A stretch of DNA of 64,000 nt from Gammaproteobacteria bacterium (GCA_024234975.1 JACKNH010000004.1:150310-214309); one strand, 5' to 3'; counted from the first letter of the stretch, positions 23,445 to 55,405 are shown. The notes: generated by a model from the sequence alone, not told the origin. A program made the numbers and translations.

Positions 23445-24876
23445 GGAAAACGGTGCTCGACAAGGCGCCAGTATACCGAATTAGGCGCAGCAGTGGCAAT
23501 GGCGGCGGTGCGGGCCGTGCGACGGTGGCGGATTATGCGCGCGGGTGTCTCGGCTTCGAGCCTGGCCAGGAAGTCAACAACATGTTGATGGGTGTCGCCA
23601 ATGTCCTCGTACAGGATGCCGTGGCGCTCTGCTTCCACCCAGTACAGCCGCTTTTGTTGGTTGGAACGATCGACAACAGGTTGGCGCTGGCGGGATCCAC
23701 CACCGGGTCGCCGGTGGACTGATCAACGTCACCGGGCAGGTGATTCTGCTGCTGTCGGCGCAGTGATCGTTGAGTTGGTGGCTCATACAGCGCGCGAATG
23801 GGTACGTTCCGGTAGTTGATGTGAGGATGTTCGCTTTCGTTGAAGCGGAACGGAAAAACACCTTCGTAGGATGTCAGCCAGCGGACAATATTCGCACCGT
23901 GTACCAGTGGCGCGAATTTCAGGTTCTGGTTGGAATTTCAAGCCGGTGCAAACCGTGCCACCCTGGCCAGCTGCGATGGCGCTTCGGCTGCCAGCAGCAG
24001 GCCGAGCGCCGCCGGTGGAAAAACTACCAGCGCGACTTCGTCGGTGATCGCCTGCAACACCTGGTAGCCTTCCCGCACCGAACGCCAGCCAGTCCTCCCA
24101 GCGGCGCTCGCGCAAGTCCACGGCAGGTGCCATGGCCTTCAGCCGCGGACCATGACCGTGTAACCCAGCGCATGCAATTTTCACCAATGCCGCGGACCTC
24201 GGCCGGCGACGCCAGCAGACCATGTATCAGCAGCACGCCGACGCGTCGTTGACGCGGCGCCACCAGCAGAAACGGATCATGCGACATTGTCGCAGTTTCC
24301 TGCTGATTGATTTGTGCATGTCGTGGCCGGCTGAATAATTGCTTGTCCCACGCCAACGCAAGCATCTGATCGTTGAAGCGCAGATCGGCCAGTGCGCGGG
24401 GCGTCACCAGTGGCGCCTGATTTATATAAGGCCTCGCGTCGGTGATCAGCGCGCCCAGCGGCTCCACTTCGTTGGCATATACCTCCAGCGGATTTTCCAG
24501 TCGAACCTCGTCGAACTCCTGGCCACTGGTGAGCTTGGGCAGGAAGTCGATGGTGTCACCGTTCATCGCCAGCAGTTCCGCCCGGGCAGCGGATTCAAGC
24601 AATTGCTGGAGTTGAGGCGTGGTGGCGGCCAGCAGGCGGGCGTAGACCTCCGGATTGCATACAAATCCTGGTGCAGGTGCACCTCGCGGTGTACATGCAG
24701 CTTGATGAACAGGTACAACGCCATGCGCAGTTGGGCAGCGGCAGCGAGCGATGGCCATCCTCCCGGTGGTTGAAGATGATATGCGCGGCGAGGTGCGAAA
24801 GATTCACCGTCACCGAGCGATACATCTCCTCCATGTAGTCATCGCGCAGCCGTTCGATGCTGCTCTTCAAACCCAT
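23423..24876 (-). pseudogene. Alpha/beta-hydrolase-fold protein with an N-terminal region of unknown function; heavily frame-shifted
   Basis: Protein-like pieces occur in all three minus frames: GLKSSIERLRDDYMEEMYRSVTVNLSHLAAHIIFNHRE; QLRMALYLFIKLHVHREVHLHQDLY; NPEVYARLLAATTPQLQQLLESAARAELLAMNGDTIDFLPKL...HDPFLLVAPRQRRVGVLLIHGLLASPAEV; DLRERRWEDWLA; VEAERHGILYEDIGDTHQHVVDFLARLEAE. Confidence 0.6.
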
Positions 24877-25805
24877 GGCGCAGTAACGCAGATCGCGCGG
24901 CTGTGACTCTGATGCGTTTCAAAGGCGTGCTCCAGCGATTGCACGCGACGGCTCAGGTGCTCGACCAGCGGCTTTTCCCACCAGCGTGCATCGTGAAACA
25001 GCATCAGCGGATCACCGAGGCGGATGTCCATGTCGGTCCGCTTCAACAGCAGGTTGCCTTCTACAATCAGCTCTTCCAGGGCACGTTCGCTGAGGTTGCC
25101 TTTGAACAGTTCGACGCCCCGCACCAGCAGGTTTTCCTGAATTCGCAGCGGGTAGAACGTGATATTGGCGGGAATGATGGCCACTGGTCGACGCGCAGCT
25201 TCGACCAATGCATACCGCGACTGGAGGCCGGCCGCGTCCGCCCATTGCTGCAGAATCTCACGGTTGCCACGCTGGTCCTGACGCAGCACAGCGCGATGAA
25301 ATATCTCGAGACCTATCGCCAGCCGCGCAGCGCCGGTGTGATGCTTGCGGCGTACTCGCGCCTTGCGGCTATAGATGCTGTATTCGCCGGCGGAATCGAT
25401 GACCCGGCGATCCTTGACCATGCCGCCTTCGGGAAACACAACCACTTTGCGACCGCGCAACACATTGGCCGCCAGTAACGCCAGCAGGTGCGGGTGATCA
25501 TTGGGGACGGCGCCGACATCGATCAACAGCTTCGCCAGCGATTCGTTGCCGTGAAAGAACTGGCCTGCAGCGACCGAGCGGCAGAATGCGCCGCAGGCCT
25601 GGTAAATCAGGTACTGCGGAATGAACGTCTCCATCCGCGCAAAGTGATTGAACAGGAATATGTCGCCGGCCTCGACCTGGCCTTTTTCGTGGTGCAGCTT
25701 GATGTTGAGGCCCAGCAGATGACGGACGCGTTCGAACCAGCGCGCGAGGCGCTCGTAGACCTGCGGATTCAAATCCAGCTGTGGGTCGTGTGCCGGGACG
25801 GTCAT
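24867..25805 (-). CDS. Lysophospholipid/glycerolipid acyltransferase family protein (PlsC-like)
   Basis: FLFNHFARMETFIPQ (NHx4D-type motif with Glu in place of Asp) and VVVFPEGGMV (motif III). The ATG at 25805 overlaps the queG TGA (ATGA). The ORF track start at 25832 is less likely. Confidence 0.7.
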   Translation of the reverse strand: MTVPAHDPQLDLNPQVYERLARWFERVRHLLGLNIKLHHEKGQVEAGDIFLFNHFARMETFIPQYLIYQACGAFCRSVAAGQFFHGNESLAKLLIDVGAVPNDHPHLLALLAANVLRGRKVVVFPEGGMVKDRRVIDSAGEYSIYSRKARVRRKHHTGAARLAIGLEIFHRAVLRQDQRGNREILQQWADAAGLQSRYALVEAARRPVAIIPANITFYPLRIQENLLVRGVELFKGNLSERALEELIVEGNLLLKRTDMDIRLGDPLMLFHDARWWEKPLVEHLSRRVQSLEHAFETHQSHSRAICVTAPWV

Positions 25806-26884
25806 GTCATCGCCTGCTGTTGCAGCGCCCATTCCACATGTTCACGCACCATGCTATCCGGAAATTTCACGCGCGACATCAAGGCGTCATGGACGCGCTG
25901 GCTGTGCGGCGCATTACCCAGCGCGACCGCGATGTTGCGCAGCCAGCGCAACCAGCCGATCCGGCGAATGGCTGAACCTTCGGTCCGGGTGAGGAATTCG
26001 TCTTCGGTCCAGGCGAACAGCGCTACCAGGTCGGGATTGTCCAGTGAGTTGCGTACGCGAAAATCAGGTTCGGCGCTCACCCTGGCGAAGCGGTTCCACG
26101 GGCAGACGAGTTGGCAGTCGTCACAGCCATAGATGCGGTTACCGATGAGTGGTCGCAGCTCAACGGGAATGCCGCCCTTCAATTCGATCGTCAGGTAGGA
26201 AATACACAAGCGCGCATCAAGCTGGTACGGCGCCACGATGGCCCGGGTCGGGCAGACGTCGATGCAGCGCGTGCAGGTGCCGCAATGCTCCTGCGTGACG
26301 GGCGGGTCCGGTGGTAGCGCCAGGTCGGTATAGATTTCACCGAGAAAAAACCACGAACCGGCCTGCCGATGTATCAGGTTGGTATGTTTGCCGATCCAGC
26401 CCAGGGCCGCGTTGCGGGCATGGGCTTTCTCCAGGACCGGTGCGCTGTCGCAGAACACGCGGTAGCCGAAAGGCCCGATGATTTTGCCGATGTCGTCGGC
26501 GAGGTGCTGTAGCCGTTGGCGAATCAGCTTGTGGTAATCGCGGCCGGTGGCGTAGCGTGAGACGTAGCCTCGCGTGCCGTCAATCAGGACCTGTGCAGGA
26601 TCAGTGGCATCGGCGGGCCAGTAGTCCATACGCACACTGATGATGGTGCGAGTCCCTTCAACCAACGCCCCCGGCGCCTGACGGAGCGCGGCATGGCGCG
26701 CCATCCAGTCCATCTCGCCCTGATAACCGGCCGCGAGCCAGTCGGTCAGATGCGCATTGTCATCGTCCGCCACGCCGCTGCTGAAACCAACCTGGCCAAA
26801 CCCGTGCAGGCGGCCGAGTTCGCGGATCCGGGCGATGATTTCCGAAGGCACTGCGTCAGATGGCGGGTGGGATGGGTAATGCAT
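25802..26884 (-). CDS. queG: tRNA epoxyqueuosine(34) reductase
   Basis: Ferredoxin-type motifs CGTCTRCIDVCPTRAI and CDDCQLVCPWN, plus a C-terminal HEAT-like WLRWLRNIAVALGNA. The start MHYPSHPP at 26884 is preferred over the ORF-track start at 26959. Confidence 0.88.
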   Translation of the reverse strand: MHYPSHPPSDAVPSEIIARIRELGRLHGFGQVGFSSGVADDDNAHLTDWLAAGYQGEMDWMARHAALRQAPGALVEGTRTIISVRMDYWPADATDPAQVLIDGTRGYVSRYATGRDYHKLIRQRLQHLADDIGKIIGPFGYRVFCDSAPVLEKAHARNAALGWIGKHTNLIHRQAGSWFFLGEIYTDLALPPDPPVTQEHCGTCTRCIDVCPTRAIVAPYQLDARLCISYLTIELKGGIPVELRPLIGNRIYGCDDCQLVCPWNRFARVSAEPDFRVRNSLDNPDLVALFAWTEDEFLTRTEGSAIRRIGWLRWLRNIAVALGNAPHSQRVHDALMSRVKFPDSMVREHVEWALQQQAMT

Positions 26885-27626
26885 CCTGCAGCCGGCGTTG
26901 CACCGCATGCCACAGCGCGAGAAAAGCCCGGCCGGCGTCGGTGCCGGCGGCAAACGCATTCACCGGCGCGCGTTGCTCGCCCATGCGTTCGATGTCACTC
27001 GCATAGGGGATGTAGCTGCGAATGACTTCCTCGTGCTCGGCAGCGAACTGGGCCACCGTCGCGCGGTGAATATTCTTGCGTCGATCGACCATGGAGAAAA
27101 ATGGCAGCAAACGCGCGGTGATATTCTGCTGTGTGTGCAGATACTGCCGTATCTGGGTGTAGGCACGCACCGACAGCGGGGTCGGAATGACCGGCACCAG
27201 CAACCAATCCACCGCGTGAAACACACTCTCGGACACCAGCGACATGTTGGGCGCGCAATCGATGATCAGCAGGTCGAAATCCTCTTCGACACTCGCCAGC
27301 CGTTTGGTCAGGCGGTATTCCGGATTCTTGCGATCGTAGAGATCGATATCGAGGTGACGATAGCTGAAGTCAGCCGGCAACATGCTGAGGTTGGCGTAAC
27401 TGGTGGTCCGGATCGATTTACGCAGCGCCTTCTTCTTGTCCAGCAGGCGCGCGGCGCCGCCATCGATGCTGGGGTCCACACGCAGATAGAAGCTGGCAGC
27501 GCCTTGCGGATCGAGATCCCAGAGCAAGGTGCGAAGCCCTGTGCGGCTGGCTTCATAGGCCAGGTTCACCGCCGCCGCTGTTTTACCCACGCCACCTTTG
27601 ATGTTGTAGGTCGCGAGCGAAATCAT
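26856..27626 (-). CDS. Orphan ParA/MinD-family P-loop ATPase
   Basis: Deviant Walker A with signature lysine, ATYNIKGGVGKTAAAVNLA (nt 27579-27599). DLDPQG. Walker B-like DLLIIDCAPN. The ATG overlaps the CHAD gene TGA (ATGA at 27623-27626). Confidence 0.85.
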   Translation of the reverse strand: MISLATYNIKGGVGKTAAAVNLAYEASRTGLRTLLWDLDPQGAASFYLRVDPSIDGGAARLLDKKKALRKSIRTTSYANLSMLPADFSYRHLDIDLYDRKNPEYRLTKRLASVEEDFDLLIIDCAPNMSLVSESVFHAVDWLLVPVIPTPLSVRAYTQIRQYLHTQQNITARLLPFFSMVDRRKNIHRATVAQFAAEHEEVIRSYIPYASDIERMGEQRAPVNAFAAGTDAGRAFLALWHAVQRRLQDALPIPPAI

Positions 27627-28606
27627 TGGCCGCCACCGCTGGCCGAAGCTTCACGCCCACGTAATAACTTCTTGCAGCGCTTATGGCTTTTCGGCGCCGC
27701 TATCTTCTGCAACGCCTTGCACGCCTTGGCCTTGATCGCGGCACGTTCCCGGCGCCGACGCTTTTGCAGCCGGCGCAGCTCGCGCCCTGCGCCACGATGC
27801 TTGCGCGGGCTGTGGCGCAATTCGTTGCGCCAGTTCTTCAGCAGTACCACCTGGGCTTCCAGGTCGCAGAACGCGCCCAGCGCATTCTGCAATTTCTTCA
27901 GCCGCGCCAGTAACTTTTCTCTGCGTTCAGGATCGTAAGCGTGTGGAAATGCTTCCAACTGGTAACGCAGTTGCTTGCCGAGGATACGTACATCATGGAT
28001 GCGCCGTGGCGTCGGTTTTCGCAGTGCATTGCGCGCCGCGCGGCGGAAGTCATCATAGCTGGCGCGGATTATCTTGTGGATGAAACGCAGCGCCCGCGGG
28101 TCCTGCGGTGCAGGGCTCAGCAGCGCTGCCAGTGACGTCACCCAATGCGAGCGCAGATCGCGATAGACCTCGCTCTCCAGCATGATGCGCACGCGGTGTT
28201 GTTCGTCGGCGATATCGCGTGCGAGCAGCGATGACAGCATGGAATAGGTGATGGATTTCTTGAACTCGCCGCGCATCTGCTTGCGCAGCAGGCCCAGCAA
28301 CACGTCAAGGTCACGTTGGTGGCTGGTGGCGGACTGCAGCCAGCGCATGCCTTGCGCCAGTGGACGCGTCAATTGCTTGCTCAGACTGTGCTTGAGAAAT
28401 GGCAGCAGCGCACGGGTACGACGGATCGCGATGCGCGCTTCATGCAGCGCGTCTGCGTTCGGGGTTTCCAGCCAGGCGCCGAGTTGCTGGTCGATCTGAT
28501 AGACCTGCGCCTGCAGGATCGCCGCGGCCAATGATTGCAGCGAAGGCACTGCCGGACGTGGCGTCGGCGGTAGGGTCTGGCTGGAATATGGCAGTTCCTG
28601 GCTCAT
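27623..28606 (-). CDS. CHAD domain-containing protein with a strongly basic C-terminal tail
   Basis: CHAD-type conserved His/Arg helices: LHEARIAIRRTRALLPFL, IHDVRILGKQLRYQLEAF and LKKLQNALGAFCDLEAQ. By my count the last 68 aa contain 25 Lys/Arg (…LQKRRRRERAAIKAKACKALQKIAAPKSHKRCKKLLRGRE…). Confidence 0.8.
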   Translation of the reverse strand: MSQELPYSSQTLPPTPRPAVPSLQSLAAAILQAQVYQIDQQLGAWLETPNADALHEARIAIRRTRALLPFLKHSLSKQLTRPLAQGMRWLQSATSHQRDLDVLLGLLRKQMRGEFKKSITYSMLSSLLARDIADEQHRVRIMLESEVYRDLRSHWVTSLAALLSPAPQDPRALRFIHKIIRASYDDFRRAARNALRKPTPRRIHDVRILGKQLRYQLEAFPHAYDPERREKLLARLKKLQNALGAFCDLEAQVVLLKNWRNELRHSPRKHRGAGRELRRLQKRRRRERAAIKAKACKALQKIAAPKSHKRCKKLLRGREASASGGGQ

Positions 28607-28693
28607 GCGCTTATCGACGTCCGGACGTGCGCGCTACATTAACACGAGAAGCCGCTGTGCTTCACCGCACGCAAATACAATGGCTGATCACGG

Positions 28694-28715
28694 ATTCCGG
28701 CGCCGTGACCGGAAT
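28694..28715 (-). terminator. Hairpin 3 nt after the phoH2 stop (weak terminator or attenuator candidate)
   Basis: Minus strand ATTCCGG-tcacggcg-CCGGAAT, a 7-bp stem with an 8-nt loop. No U tract follows. Confidence 0.3.
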
Positions 28716-28717
28716 TG

Positions 28718-30172
28718 TCAGAGGTTCGCCGCGGCGAAGTCTGCCAGCGGTGAGCGTTCGCCGCGGGCAAGGATGATGTGGCCGGCGCCGGACCAGGTCT
28801 TGAAACGATCCACCACGTAGGTAAGACCCGAGGTGGTGGCGCTGAGATACGGCGTGTCGATCTGCGCGATATTACCCAGACAGACGATCTTGGTGCCGTT
28901 GCCGGCACGGGTGATCAGCGTCTTCATCTGCTTGGCGGAGAGATTCTGCGCTTCATCGATGATGACGTAGCGATCGAGAAACGTCCGGCCGCGCATGAAA
29001 TTCAGCGAGCGGATCTTGATCCGGTGGCTCAACATGTCATTGGTGACGGCGCGGCCCCATTCACCGCCTTCTTCACTGACCGTCAGCACTTCGAGGTTGT
29101 CCAGCAGCGCGCCCATCCACGGCGTCATCTTTTCCTCTTCCGAACCGGGCAGAAAACCGATGTCCTCGCCGACCGGGATCGTTTCGCGGGTGACGATGAT
29201 TTCGCGGTACAGCTTGTGTTCCATGGTCTGCGCCAGCCCTGCGGCCAGCGCCAGCAGCGTCTTGCCGGTACCGGCGGTGCCGAGCAACGTGACGAAGCTG
29301 ATATCGGGGTCCATCAGCATGTTGAGCGCAAAGTTCTGCTCACGGTTGCGGGCCATGATGCCCCACACCGCGTGCTTGGTGTTGCGATAGTCGGTGACCT
29401 GTTGCAACACGAACTTGCGCTTGGGATCTTCCCGCACAATCACTTCAATGCCGCTGTCCTCATCGCCATACAGGCAGAGGTTGGGAAATACCGGCATGTC
29501 TTCCGGCAGGTTAGGCAGTGCGTAGAAGGTATGCCCGTTGGCCTGCCACACCTCCAGGTTCGCGCCCTGGCGCTCCCAGACATCCGGCGGCAGCGGCGCG
29601 ACGCCGGAGTACAACAAATCCACGTCGTCCAGCACCTGGTCGCTGTAATAATCCTCGGCAACCAGGCCCAGCATGCGCGCCTTGATGCGCAGATTGATGT
29701 CTTTGGAAACCAGCACGATTTCCTGGTCGGTGTAGTGGCCGACCATGGTCAACGCGATGGCGATGATGGTGTTGTCGGGCACGCTGCCGGGCAGATCCTG
29801 CGGCAGCGCGCCGTCGAATAATTCGGTCTGCAGGTACAGTTTGCCGCTGGGGCTGACCAGTCCCGCGCCTTCGCCGGGTGCTGGCAGGGCCAGGCCATCG
29901 CGCAGAGCGGTGAGATCCGACTCGCCGATCAGTCCATCGAGAAAGCGGCTGACCTGACGCGCACTGCGCGCCACTTCCGAGGTGCCCTTCTTGGCGTGAT
30001 CCAGTTCCTCGATGACCGCCATCGGCAGGAAGATATCGTTTTCCTTGAAGCGGAACAGCGCGGTCGGATCGTGCAGCAACACGTTGGTGTCCAGCACGTA
30101 CATCCGGCGACGTTCGGGGTCGCGCGGCGGATTGTGGGCGGAACGGCCTGCAGGCTGCTCGCCAGCGGTCAT
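28718..30172 (-). CDS. PhoH2-type protein: N-terminal PIN domain fused to a PhoH-like ATPase
   Basis: PIN domain: MYVLDTNVLLHDPTALFRFKENDIFLPMAVIEELD. P-loop: VTLLGTAGTGKTLLALA. PhoH core: YVIIDEAQNLSAKQMKTLITRAGNGTKIVCLGNIAQID. The ATG at 30172 overlaps the gcvR TGA (ATGA). An alternative ATG lies at 30103. Confidence 0.85.
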   Translation of the reverse strand: MTAGEQPAGRSAHNPPRDPERRRMYVLDTNVLLHDPTALFRFKENDIFLPMAVIEELDHAKKGTSEVARSARQVSRFLDGLIGESDLTALRDGLALPAPGEGAGLVSPSGKLYLQTELFDGALPQDLPGSVPDNTIIAIALTMVGHYTDQEIVLVSKDINLRIKARMLGLVAEDYYSDQVLDDVDLLYSGVAPLPPDVWERQGANLEVWQANGHTFYALPNLPEDMPVFPNLCLYGDEDSGIEVIVREDPKRKFVLQQVTDYRNTKHAVWGIMARNREQNFALNMLMDPDISFVTLLGTAGTGKTLLALAAGLAQTMEHKLYREIIVTRETIPVGEDIGFLPGSEEEKMTPWMGALLDNLEVLTVSEEGGEWGRAVTNDMLSHRIKIRSLNFMRGRTFLDRYVIIDEAQNLSAKQMKTLITRAGNGTKIVCLGNIAQIDTPYLSATTSGLTYVVDRFKTWSGAGHIILARGERSPLADFAAANL

Positions 30173-30699
30173 TTCACCGGCTCCATAATCGCGTCAAGAT
30201 TCAGGTGATCGCAGAAATCCATGAATTCTCCGCGCAACGCGGCGATCGAGATATCGGTCGGGATGCTGATGGTCAGATGCAGCGAGAACATCGGCGTTGC
30301 GGTATGCGCGGCGGCGTAGGTGCCGGAGATCAGCTCTTCGATATTGATCTCGCGGGCGGTGAAGAACTGGCTGATATCGTGGACGATACCGATCTGGTCC
30401 ACCGCCACGACTTCCACGGCATAGGGCATGAAATTGCCACTGCGCTTGCGTGCTTCCGAACGGCGGGTCGTGAGCGTCAACCGCAATTGTTCTGCCAGGC
30501 GGTTCTGAATGTTTTCGAATTTGGCGATGGAATCCCAGCTGCCGGTCAGCATGATCATCATGCACAACGAGTCGCCCATTACGGCCATGCGGCTGTCTGC
30601 CACGCTGCAGCCGCAGTCCTTGATTGCTTTGGTGAACGATTCAACGAGATCCGGACGGTTTTGTCCGATGGCGGTCAGGGCCAGGTAGTTTTGCATCAA
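30169..30699 (-). CDS. gcvR: Glycine cleavage system transcriptional repressor-like protein (tandem ACT domains)
   Basis: YLALTAIGQNRPDLVESFTKAIKDCGCSVADSRMAVMGDSLCMMIMLTGSWDSI parallels E. coli GcvR. It is divergent from dapA, as in E. coli. Confidence 0.8.
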   Translation of the reverse strand: MMQNYLALTAIGQNRPDLVESFTKAIKDCGCSVADSRMAVMGDSLCMMIMLTGSWDSIAKFENIQNRLAEQLRLTLTTRRSEARKRSGNFMPYAVEVVAVDQIGIVHDISQFFTAREINIEELISGTYAAAHTATPMFSLHLTISIPTDISIAALRGEFMDFCDHLNLDAIMEPVK

Positions 30700-52242: not shown

Positions 52243-55344
<3,102 letters not shown>

Positions 55345-55405
55345 TGCTGTGTCATCGTTGAACCGTGGGCACGCCCGACGGTGTCATGAAATCAGTCGCC
55401 CGTGG

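Follow-up and report, generated by a model that had tools for sequence, protein, structure and literature searches.

What does an ATPase of the ParA/MinD superfamily do when its start codon lies over the stop codon of a gene for a CHAD-domain protein? This arrangement was found in a 64,000-nucleotide (nt) stretch of DNA from a Gammaproteobacteria bacterium (GCA_024234975.1 JACKNH010000004.1:150310-214309; hereafter the window), on the minus strand. Polyphosphate (polyP) granules are regularly spaced, or lie at defined positions, in many bacteria, and a sequence-only reading of the window had proposed that the two genes form a partitioning system for such granules. Our analysis indicates that the CHAD protein and the ATPase very probably work together. 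We lean slightly towards the view that they are a ParA-type system for positioning polyP granules, with the CHAD protein as the granule-bound adaptor and the nucleoid as the track. The elements on which the question turns are the following.

27623..28606, minus strand: gene of the CHAD-domain protein, 327 amino acids (aa); the short form, without the N-terminal TTM-like domain present in most orthologues.

26856..27626, minus strand: gene of the ParA/MinD-superfamily ATPase, 256 aa; a distinct subfamily linked to CHAD genes.

27623..27626, minus strand: ATGA stop/start overlap, the TGA of the CHAD gene over the ATG of the ATPase gene (TCAT on the plus strand).

27579..27605, minus strand: Walker A codons NIKGGVGKT (residues 8-16), including the signature lysine K10.

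The overlap, the 256-aa length of the ATPase and its deviant Walker A motif with the signature lysine had all been pointed out before, and each was found as described. Pfam CHAD (PF05235) matched residues 29-255 of the 327-aa protein with E = 3.7e-38 (132.2 bits against a cut-off of 25.6). The ATPase matched AAA_31 with E = 7.5e-31 (107.9 bits against 27) and CbiA with E = 5.9e-14 (52.5 against 25.4).

To survey the pairing, we built a profile from 24 homologues of the ATPase, scanned it against one genome per GTDB species and kept the best 80 loci. Together with the window and the first three loci obtained by looking up contigs, they make up the tally of 84. All open reading frames (ORFs) of the loci were searched with the window CHAD protein and an iterated CHAD profile. 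The best 80 loci came from Gammaproteobacteria (Sedimenticola, Thiodiazotropha, Methylococcales, Thiogranum), Nitrotoga, Rhodospirillales and Trichloromonas, and from Acidobacteriota, many Actinomycetota, Dormibacterota, Planctomycetota, Gemmatimonadota and Bacteroidota. A same-strand CHAD ORF ended at the ATPase start in 61 of the 84 loci, including two frameshifted copies and one cut by a contig end. One other locus had its CHAD gene 232 nt upstream, one had it in divergent orientation, and two were uninformative, being cut just before the ATPase. Junctions were scored with the ATPase start placed from the Walker A position (n = 58): 40 showed a 4-nt NTGA overlap, 6 a 1-nt overlap, 10 a gap of 2-19 nt and 2 a larger gap (85 and 232 nt). 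Adjacency and overlap were kept in Gamma-, Beta- and Alphaproteobacteria, Desulfuromonadota, Acidobacteriota, Actinomycetota, Dormibacterota, Planctomycetota and Gemmatimonadota; the pairing is thus spread over at least nine lineages rather than restricted to that of the window. No other gene family was conserved around the ATPase across phyla in the 84 loci.

A genome typically carries only a few CHAD genes, and a rough estimate puts the chance of such an adjacency at about 1 in 1000 per genome. Recurring as it does in so many loci and phyla, the adjacency is far beyond chance. It is scarcely credible that it is inherited synteny without functional meaning. The ATPase in the window's gammaproteobacterial lineage does keep queG as a neighbour too, with no obvious functional link; however, the CHAD-ATPase junction persists in at least nine phylum- or class-level groups while the other neighbours change, the 4-nt overlaps are conserved, and fusions of the ATPase to CYTH domains exist (see below). 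Approached from the CHAD side, the high-scoring partner P0184 has the ATPase just upstream, after an HU-like gene. A reversed order was seen in locus L088 (3566-6374), which reads HU-like DNA-binding protein, ATPase (41% identical to that of the window), a 267-nt gap and a 457-aa CHAD protein.

We then asked what kind of CHAD protein the partner is. The usual partner has 505-535 aa (about 520) and consists of a degenerate TTM/CYTH fold followed by a long CHAD domain; Pfam found CHAD in 40 of 40 partner proteins and no other domain. In an AlphaFold2 model of the long partner P0127 (predicted local distance difference test score, pLDDT, 95.9), the N-terminal ~200 residues matched triphosphate tunnel (CYTH) proteins, among them thiamine triphosphatase and CyaB-like cyclases. 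The modelled CHAD domain of the same protein matched the Chlorobium tepidum CHAD-polyP structure 6QVA with 40% identity, a template modelling (TM) score of 0.94 and a root-mean-square deviation of 1.8 Å. The crystallised Chlorobium domain comprises residues 207-522 of Q8KE09 (PMC6537752); therefore, Q8KE09 shares its architecture and length with the partner family. The AlphaFold2 model of the window protein (pLDDT 89.4, predicted TM score 0.86) superposed on the 310-residue Chlorobium structure over 309 columns, with TM scores of 0.79/0.83 against 6QVA. The window protein is thereby predicted to have the long type of CHAD fold, with two four-helix bundles and a central basic pore.

In the Chlorobium domain, H253, R256, R260 and R296 contact polyP, and their mutation weakens binding (PMC6537752). 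The corresponding codons of the window gene were located through a phmmer alignment to 6QV7/6QVA.

28421..28444, minus strand: codons H55, R58 and R62 of the CHAD protein (Chlorobium CHAD H253, R256 and R260).

28313..28315, minus strand: codon R98 of the CHAD protein (Chlorobium CHAD R296, polyP binding).

H55, R58 and R62 were invariant in alignments A4 and A5, and R98 in A2, A4 and A5. The 'back-side' patch of the Chlorobium domain (R385, K386, K389, K390) was only partly kept in the window protein. With the contact residues conserved, the partner is, as far as aligned residues can tell, a CHAD protein of the polyP-binding type, in agreement with the sequence-only reading.

The TTM-like domain of the long partners gave no Pfam CYTH match in the 40 proteins tested and had no conserved Glu, and its conserved basic residues were kept. 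Since the conserved acidic residues are missing, it is probably a binding module and not an enzyme. The window protein has no N-terminal domain at all, and thus no YgiF-type CYTH domain with an ExExK motif; the TTM-like domain is also missing from a few other partners (L009, L027). The window protein is divergent, with at most 30% identity to any other homologue, and the closest syntenic relatives of its gene retain the 507-518-aa form. The partner family shares the long CHAD fold, the central pore and the polyP-contacting His and Arg residues with the CHAD phosins and TTM-CHAD proteins (Q8KE09, Ralstonia eutropha PptA/PptB, Escherichia coli YgiF). It differs from them in that the ParA-linked TTM-like domain is not recognised by Pfam CYTH, and the window copy lacks that domain. 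We know of no ATPase partner described for phosins, and the phenotypes of CHAD phosin deletions have so far been weak.

How might the CHAD protein contact the ATPase? The sequence-only reading had assigned this role to a basic C-terminal tail of the CHAD protein, about one third Lys and Arg over ~70 residues.

27626..27835, minus strand: C-terminal 70 residues (258-327) of the CHAD protein, 36% Lys+Arg; predicted last helices of the CHAD fold.

The composition was as reported: 25 of the last 70 residues are Lys or Arg (36%), against 16% in the remainder of the protein. Two further points favour a flexible C-terminal peptide that docks on the ParA dimer to stimulate ATP hydrolysis: the region adjoins the ParA start, and known ParA partners use positively charged peptides (PMC12462528). 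We nevertheless consider this very unlikely. Residues 268-303 and 305-314 were helical in the AlphaFold2 model (pLDDT of the block 87-97), the entire chain superposes on the full CHAD crystal structure, and lower confidence was limited to the ~10 terminal residues (RGREASASGGGQ), which are not conserved. The Pfam CHAD model ends two helices short of the end of the long CHAD fold. An initial interpretation of the ~60 residues past this boundary as an extension specific to ParA-linked proteins was dropped when structure comparison showed that they belong to the normal long CHAD fold. In alignment, the window tail fell on the C-terminal helices that the partner family conserves, with the consensus RQxxARxxFxxRFxxF...NRxxFxxLF. 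The basicity is not conserved: over the last 60 residues, the window protein had 38% Lys+Arg, the highest value of 61 partners, most of which had about 15%. Basic residues could equally serve polyP or DNA binding. The proposed tail is thus predicted to consist of folded helices of a long CHAD domain, and its extreme basicity is peculiar to the window genome.

Fairly basic ends (25-30%) were likewise seen in the other short or cut partner ORFs, namely L009, L027 and the contig-cut L042. One may speculate that basic ends offset the missing TTM-like domain or add DNA affinity. At the other end of the window protein, residues 1-22 were disordered and not basic. Contact with the ATPase is probably made by a folded surface of the CHAD protein rather than by its basic C-terminus.

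The ATPase was then compared with ParA/MinD proteins of known cargo. It has more than 8000 homologues, the closest being 55-71% identical, and a profile search of 1.84 billion representative proteins gave 794 clusters (50% identity) at E <= 1e-30, with scores of 250-366 bits within the family. The deviant Walker A motif YNIKGGVGKT at residues 7-16 agrees with the superfamily pattern xKGGxGK[ST] and its signature lysine. In the 24-sequence alignment A1, the invariant residues were N8, K10, G11, G12, V13, G14, K15 and T16, D37 and D39 of Walker A' (WDLDPQG), D123 of Walker B (DCAP), and R183. R183 aligned with the Arg of the FDSR motif in Myxococcus xanthus ParA, a position that we take to be that of the DNA-binding arginine R189 of Bacillus subtilis Soj.

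Classification was based on profile scores against solved structures and on the curated NCBIfam cut-offs. The family profile scored 117 bits with 8RAY (M. xanthus chromosomal ParA), about 85 with Soj, 51 with ParF, 48 with FleN, about 45 with McdA (6NON, 6NOO) and 44 with MinD. The window ATPase fell under the cut-off of every NCBIfam model, including the partition models NF041546 ParA_partition (82.9 bits against 180), SopA (52.2 against 725) and RepA (70.2 against 348). In a neighbour-joining tree, family members were 41-71% identical to the window ATPase, and a long branch parted them from 8RAY (~25% identical). A second, unrelated ParA-like gene in one related locus (L003, 7956-8669, minus strand; 237 aa, 25% identical, convergent to queG) was equally distant. 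The profile scores, the cut-offs and the tree place the ATPase outside the clades of known cargo, in line with the earlier remark that it has no obvious conventional cargo. By these comparisons, the subfamily appears to be a tight clade of its own with its catalytic motifs intact.

Several identities were rejected. MinD did not fit (TIGR01968, 22.2 against 212.9 bits; no min genes nearby), nor did BcsQ, a name given by one source (TIGR03371, 51.4 against 157.85 bits; bcs genes in no locus), nor McdA, given the score of ~45 bits for 6NON/6NOO and the lack of carboxysome genes nearby. A ParABS partition ATPase was rejected on scores below the curated values, with no ParB within ~13 kb and none conserved across the 84 loci. 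Only 11 of 72,556 plasmid records contained a member of the subfamily; therefore, it is not a plasmid partition ATPase. With chromosomal ParA/Soj, the subfamily shares the closest solved structure (8RAY), a length of ~255 aa, the Walker motifs and the FDSR-aligned arginine. It differs in its ~25% identity, its score below the ParA_partition cut-off, the absence of parB/parS near the window pair and its CHAD partner.

That the closest solved relative is a chromosomal ParA speaks for another explanation, in which the ATPase organises a different target (the nucleoid, the division site or another complex) and the CHAD protein reports polyP status, comparable to the partner control of MipZ and PomZ. 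An HU-like gene precedes the ATPase-CHAD pair in one locus, some ATPases have no adjacent CHAD gene, and in Caulobacter the position of polyP granules follows chromosome segregation (reviewed in PMC13052382). Yet parB, min, pom or division genes were conserved nearby in no lineage, and the tight translational coupling and the fusions to phosphate-binding domains suggest that polyP is what the ATPase acts on and no mere signal. We regard this explanation as distinctly unlikely.

Links to polyP and phosphate genes recurred in part of the loci. In three loci (L010, L016, L039), ppk1 immediately preceded the CHAD gene, and in three others (L026, L032, L079) it was nearby. ppk2 was present in four GTDB loci (L010, L016, L021, L082) and in L092, where a ParA-CYTH fusion gene adjoins ppk2 and a Na/Pi cotransporter gene. 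Stand-alone CYTH genes were found in five GTDB loci. A histidine phosphatase gene (His_Phos_1, SixA-like) stood beside the pair in eight GTDB loci (L012, L016, L021, L027, L028, L029, L031, L074) and in L092, which belong to several unrelated lineages. Among the 150 best family members, about a dozen had 500-560 aa, and 7 of the 10 scanned were fusions of the ATPase to a C-terminal CYTH domain. The fusion proteins were P0246, P0251, P0277, P0298, P0315, P0335 and P0360, and fusion genes were located at L091 5001-6515, L092 5001-6566, L094 3077-4711 and L040 5086-6828. In 3 of the 3 contigs looked up, the fusion gene followed a CHAD gene, the two overlapping by 1 or 4 nt or lying a short gap apart. 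In Paracoccus aestuarii and Paracoccus marcusii, the annotated order was a small ORF, CHAD, AAA ATPase, CYTH (as a separate gene) and NUDIX, and in P. marcusii this cluster directly followed pstB-phoU-phoB.

The small ORF, seen in Paracoccus only, encodes 62 aa and overlaps the CHAD start by 4 nt (L095 3299-3487, L096 3288-3476). Its product has a basic N-terminus followed by SLRLPRKTLKALKTRAIEDD... and resembles ribbon-helix-helix proteins such as ParG or CopG; a role as regulator or as additional partner of the ATPase is conceivable.

The recurrence of enzyme genes (ppk1, ppk2, CYTH, NUDIX, His_Phos_1) would fit a pair that controls polyP metabolism or granule biogenesis, in which the ATPase is an ATP-dependent switch on nucleation, size or turnover, acting with CYTH, NUDIX, PPK1 and PPK2 proteins. 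Through the fusions, a triphosphate-tunnel domain becomes part of the ATPase itself, and no canonical stimulating peptide was recognised in the partner; both fit such a switch. However, the enzymes accompany the pair in only ~10-15 of the 84 loci, and the invariant core is CHAD and ATPase alone. The TTM-like domain of the partner, having lost the conserved acidic residues, is probably no enzyme, and ParA/MinD ATPases are spatial organisers rather than metabolic regulators. We therefore consider a metabolic switch unlikely.

In the positioning system that we favour, the CHAD protein would decorate the granules by binding polyP with its basic pore and surface, which are conserved (H55, R58, R62, R98 and others). 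The co-translated ParA-like ATPase would dimerise with ATP and bind the nucleoid. The granule-bound CHAD protein would stimulate ATP hydrolysis and so free the ATPase from DNA, and the granules would follow the ATPase gradient upward. They would thereby be spaced on the nucleoid and shared between daughter cells, as carboxysomes are by McdA/McdB. Interaction of the two proteins, nucleoid binding, ATPase stimulation and granule positioning are steps that we infer from context.

McdA/McdB is likewise a two-gene unit with a small ParA-type ATPase that has no N-terminal DNA-binding domain. There too, a neighbouring, unrelated protein serves a non-DNA cytoplasmic inclusion, and the mode of action is the nucleoid gradient now proposed for the CHAD-ATPase pair. 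The two systems differ in several respects. McdA scores ~45 bits against more than 250 within the CHAD-linked family, in which the signature lysine holds the canonical Walker A position. The CHAD partner is folded (usually TTM-CHAD), whereas McdB is disordered and forms condensates. In the CHAD pair, the order of genes is adaptor then ATPase, and the cargo would be a granule of an inorganic polymer.

In full-text literature searches, no publication turned up in which a ParA-type system is proposed for polyP granules. Reviews and papers of 2024-2026 name no ParA system for polyP: the polymer is absent from a 2024 review of ParA/MinD cargos, and a review of 2025 gives AlgP as the sole polyP positioning factor and asks whether granule localisation spends energy (PMC13052382). 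AlgP of Pseudomonas aeruginosa, a histone H1-like protein, belongs to the same theme: it is very basic, acts in polyP granule spacing and ties granules to the nucleoid (PMC9239181). It differs in being a single protein with no known ATPase and no homology to CHAD or ParA. The gene adjacency itself has been drawn once: a 2019 genomics paper shows CYTH-CHAD, ppk, parA and folD in the Acidithiobacillus 'ACAci' cluster and reads it as class IV adenylate cyclase/cAMP signalling tied to cell division, not as granule positioning (PMC6416229). This cluster, with CYTH-CHAD beside ppk and parA, is, judging by the published figure, probably the same module. The earlier statement that the pair was undescribed therefore holds for the proposal of granule positioning and not for the adjacency.

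Several points weigh against a granule-positioning role. The link between the ATPase and granules is drawn from context at every functional step, and for nucleoid binding the evidence is one aligned arginine. A conserved disordered basic peptide of the ParB, MinE, McdB or ParG kind was found at neither terminus of the partner. There was no adjacent CHAD gene in 18 of the 82 informative loci, where the neighbours were unrelated; therefore, the ATPase can occur uncoupled, or its partner can lie elsewhere in the genome. Two canonical CYTH-CHAD genes were checked, and neither had an ATPase beside it; as far as this small sample goes, the ATPase link is specific to one CHAD subfamily. In Synechococcus elongatus, a 2026 study found polyP spacing to be independent of ParA-family proteins, called the mechanism 'yet to be discovered' and named CHAD proteins only as possible connectors (PMC13556221). 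Thus, any ParA-polyP system is not universal.

The neighbours in the loci without an adjacent CHAD gene included genes for a chromate transporter, Dtd, GGDEF, MacB, OmpA, DUF6599 and AI-2E proteins, and no alternative partner family emerged from them. One of these loci (L032) reads ATPase, CYTH, ppk1 and then CHAD. The CHAD-less ATPases were nested at several places among the CHAD-linked ones in the neighbour-joining tree, a pattern that fits repeated secondary separation. A Methylococcales subclade (L023, L025, L030, L041, L045, L060) had the ATPase without an adjacent CHAD gene, and in 5 of these 6 loci (not L023) a D-Tyr-tRNA deacylase gene followed the ATPase. The sister Methylococcaceae genomes (L017, L024, L035, L047, L074) kept the CHAD gene.

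The surroundings of the window pair, ~13 kb on each side, consist of housekeeping genes (GGDEF/EAL, aminotransferase, Tex, TrpE, Rpe, hydrolase, QueG, PIN-PhoH, ACT, DapA, BamC, Der, BamB, HisS). No parB-like, min, flagellar, chemotaxis or carboxysome genes were found within this distance, as the sequence-only reading had noted. The pair is preceded, on the same strand, by genes for a PIN-PhoH protein and an ACT-domain protein, and queG lies downstream of the ATPase gene.

28607..28717, minus strand: intergenic region of 111 nt, from the PIN-PhoH stop to the CHAD start; presumed promoter region, by inference only.

25802..26884, minus strand: queG (epoxyqueuosine reductase), directly 3' of the ATPase gene; Pfam QueG_DUF1730 and Fer4_16; context, outside the module.

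The PIN-PhoH gene (YlaK-like, 28718-30172, minus strand) and the ACT gene (GcvR-like, 30169-30699, minus strand) overlap by 4 nt directly upstream of the CHAD gene, and the gene order dapA, ACT, PIN-PhoH was kept in the window's lineage. PIN-PhoH and queG were neighbours of the pair in the window's own gammaproteobacterial lineage only. The adjacency of ATPase and queG, often with a 4-nt overlap, persisted in this lineage even in loci without the CHAD gene (L001, L003, L008, L044). Because the adjacency was limited to this one lineage, queG was rejected as a functional partner. The 3'-terminal 104 nt of the ATPase gene (26856-26959, minus strand) are shared with the longest ORF of queG; a start at M26 (26884) or M18 (26908) is probable, as it better fits the 355-374-aa queG product of relatives.

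After queG, relatives have a single gene for an acyltransferase/alpha-beta-hydrolase of ~770 aa. The window has two ORFs at this place (24024-24758 and 24867-25832, minus strand; 244 and 321 aa), neither of which gave a Pfam match at 1e-5. The split could reflect a frameshift, a pseudogene or an assembly error. A DUF3530 gene, next in several but not all relatives, is missing from the window.

Scans for sigma-70 promoters and intrinsic terminators over 25.6-30.9 kb gave nothing above shuffled expectation and no site upstream of the CHAD gene. No Pho box (CTGTCATNNNNCTGTCAT, with 3 mismatches allowed) was found upstream of the CHAD gene. The single Pho-box-like site with one mismatch (CTGTCATTGCTGTGTCAT; 55338-55355, plus strand), at the valS start, was dismissed as chance-level, since 22 of 100 shuffles reached the same count.

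The pair is the best available candidate for ATP-driven positioning of polyP granules, and it offers the polyP positioning question a concrete candidate that can be tested in cultured Paracoccus, Sedimenticola and Thalassobaculum. The broader claim, that it represents a widespread and ancient ParA-type system (~800 clusters, at least nine phylum- or class-level lineages) dedicated to polyP granule spacing and inheritance through a TTM-CHAD adaptor, appears to us about evenly balanced. If true, this would be the first case in which an inorganic-polymer inclusion is positioned at the expense of ATP. The adaptor would engage the ATPase by a folded domain and not by a basic peptide, and the ParA/MinD family would gain both a class of cargo and a type of adaptor that are new to it. 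One subfamily of CHAD phosins would acquire a function, and an explanation would be at hand for many orphan ParA genes, whose current annotations are AAA ATPase, BcsQ or chromosome partitioning protein.

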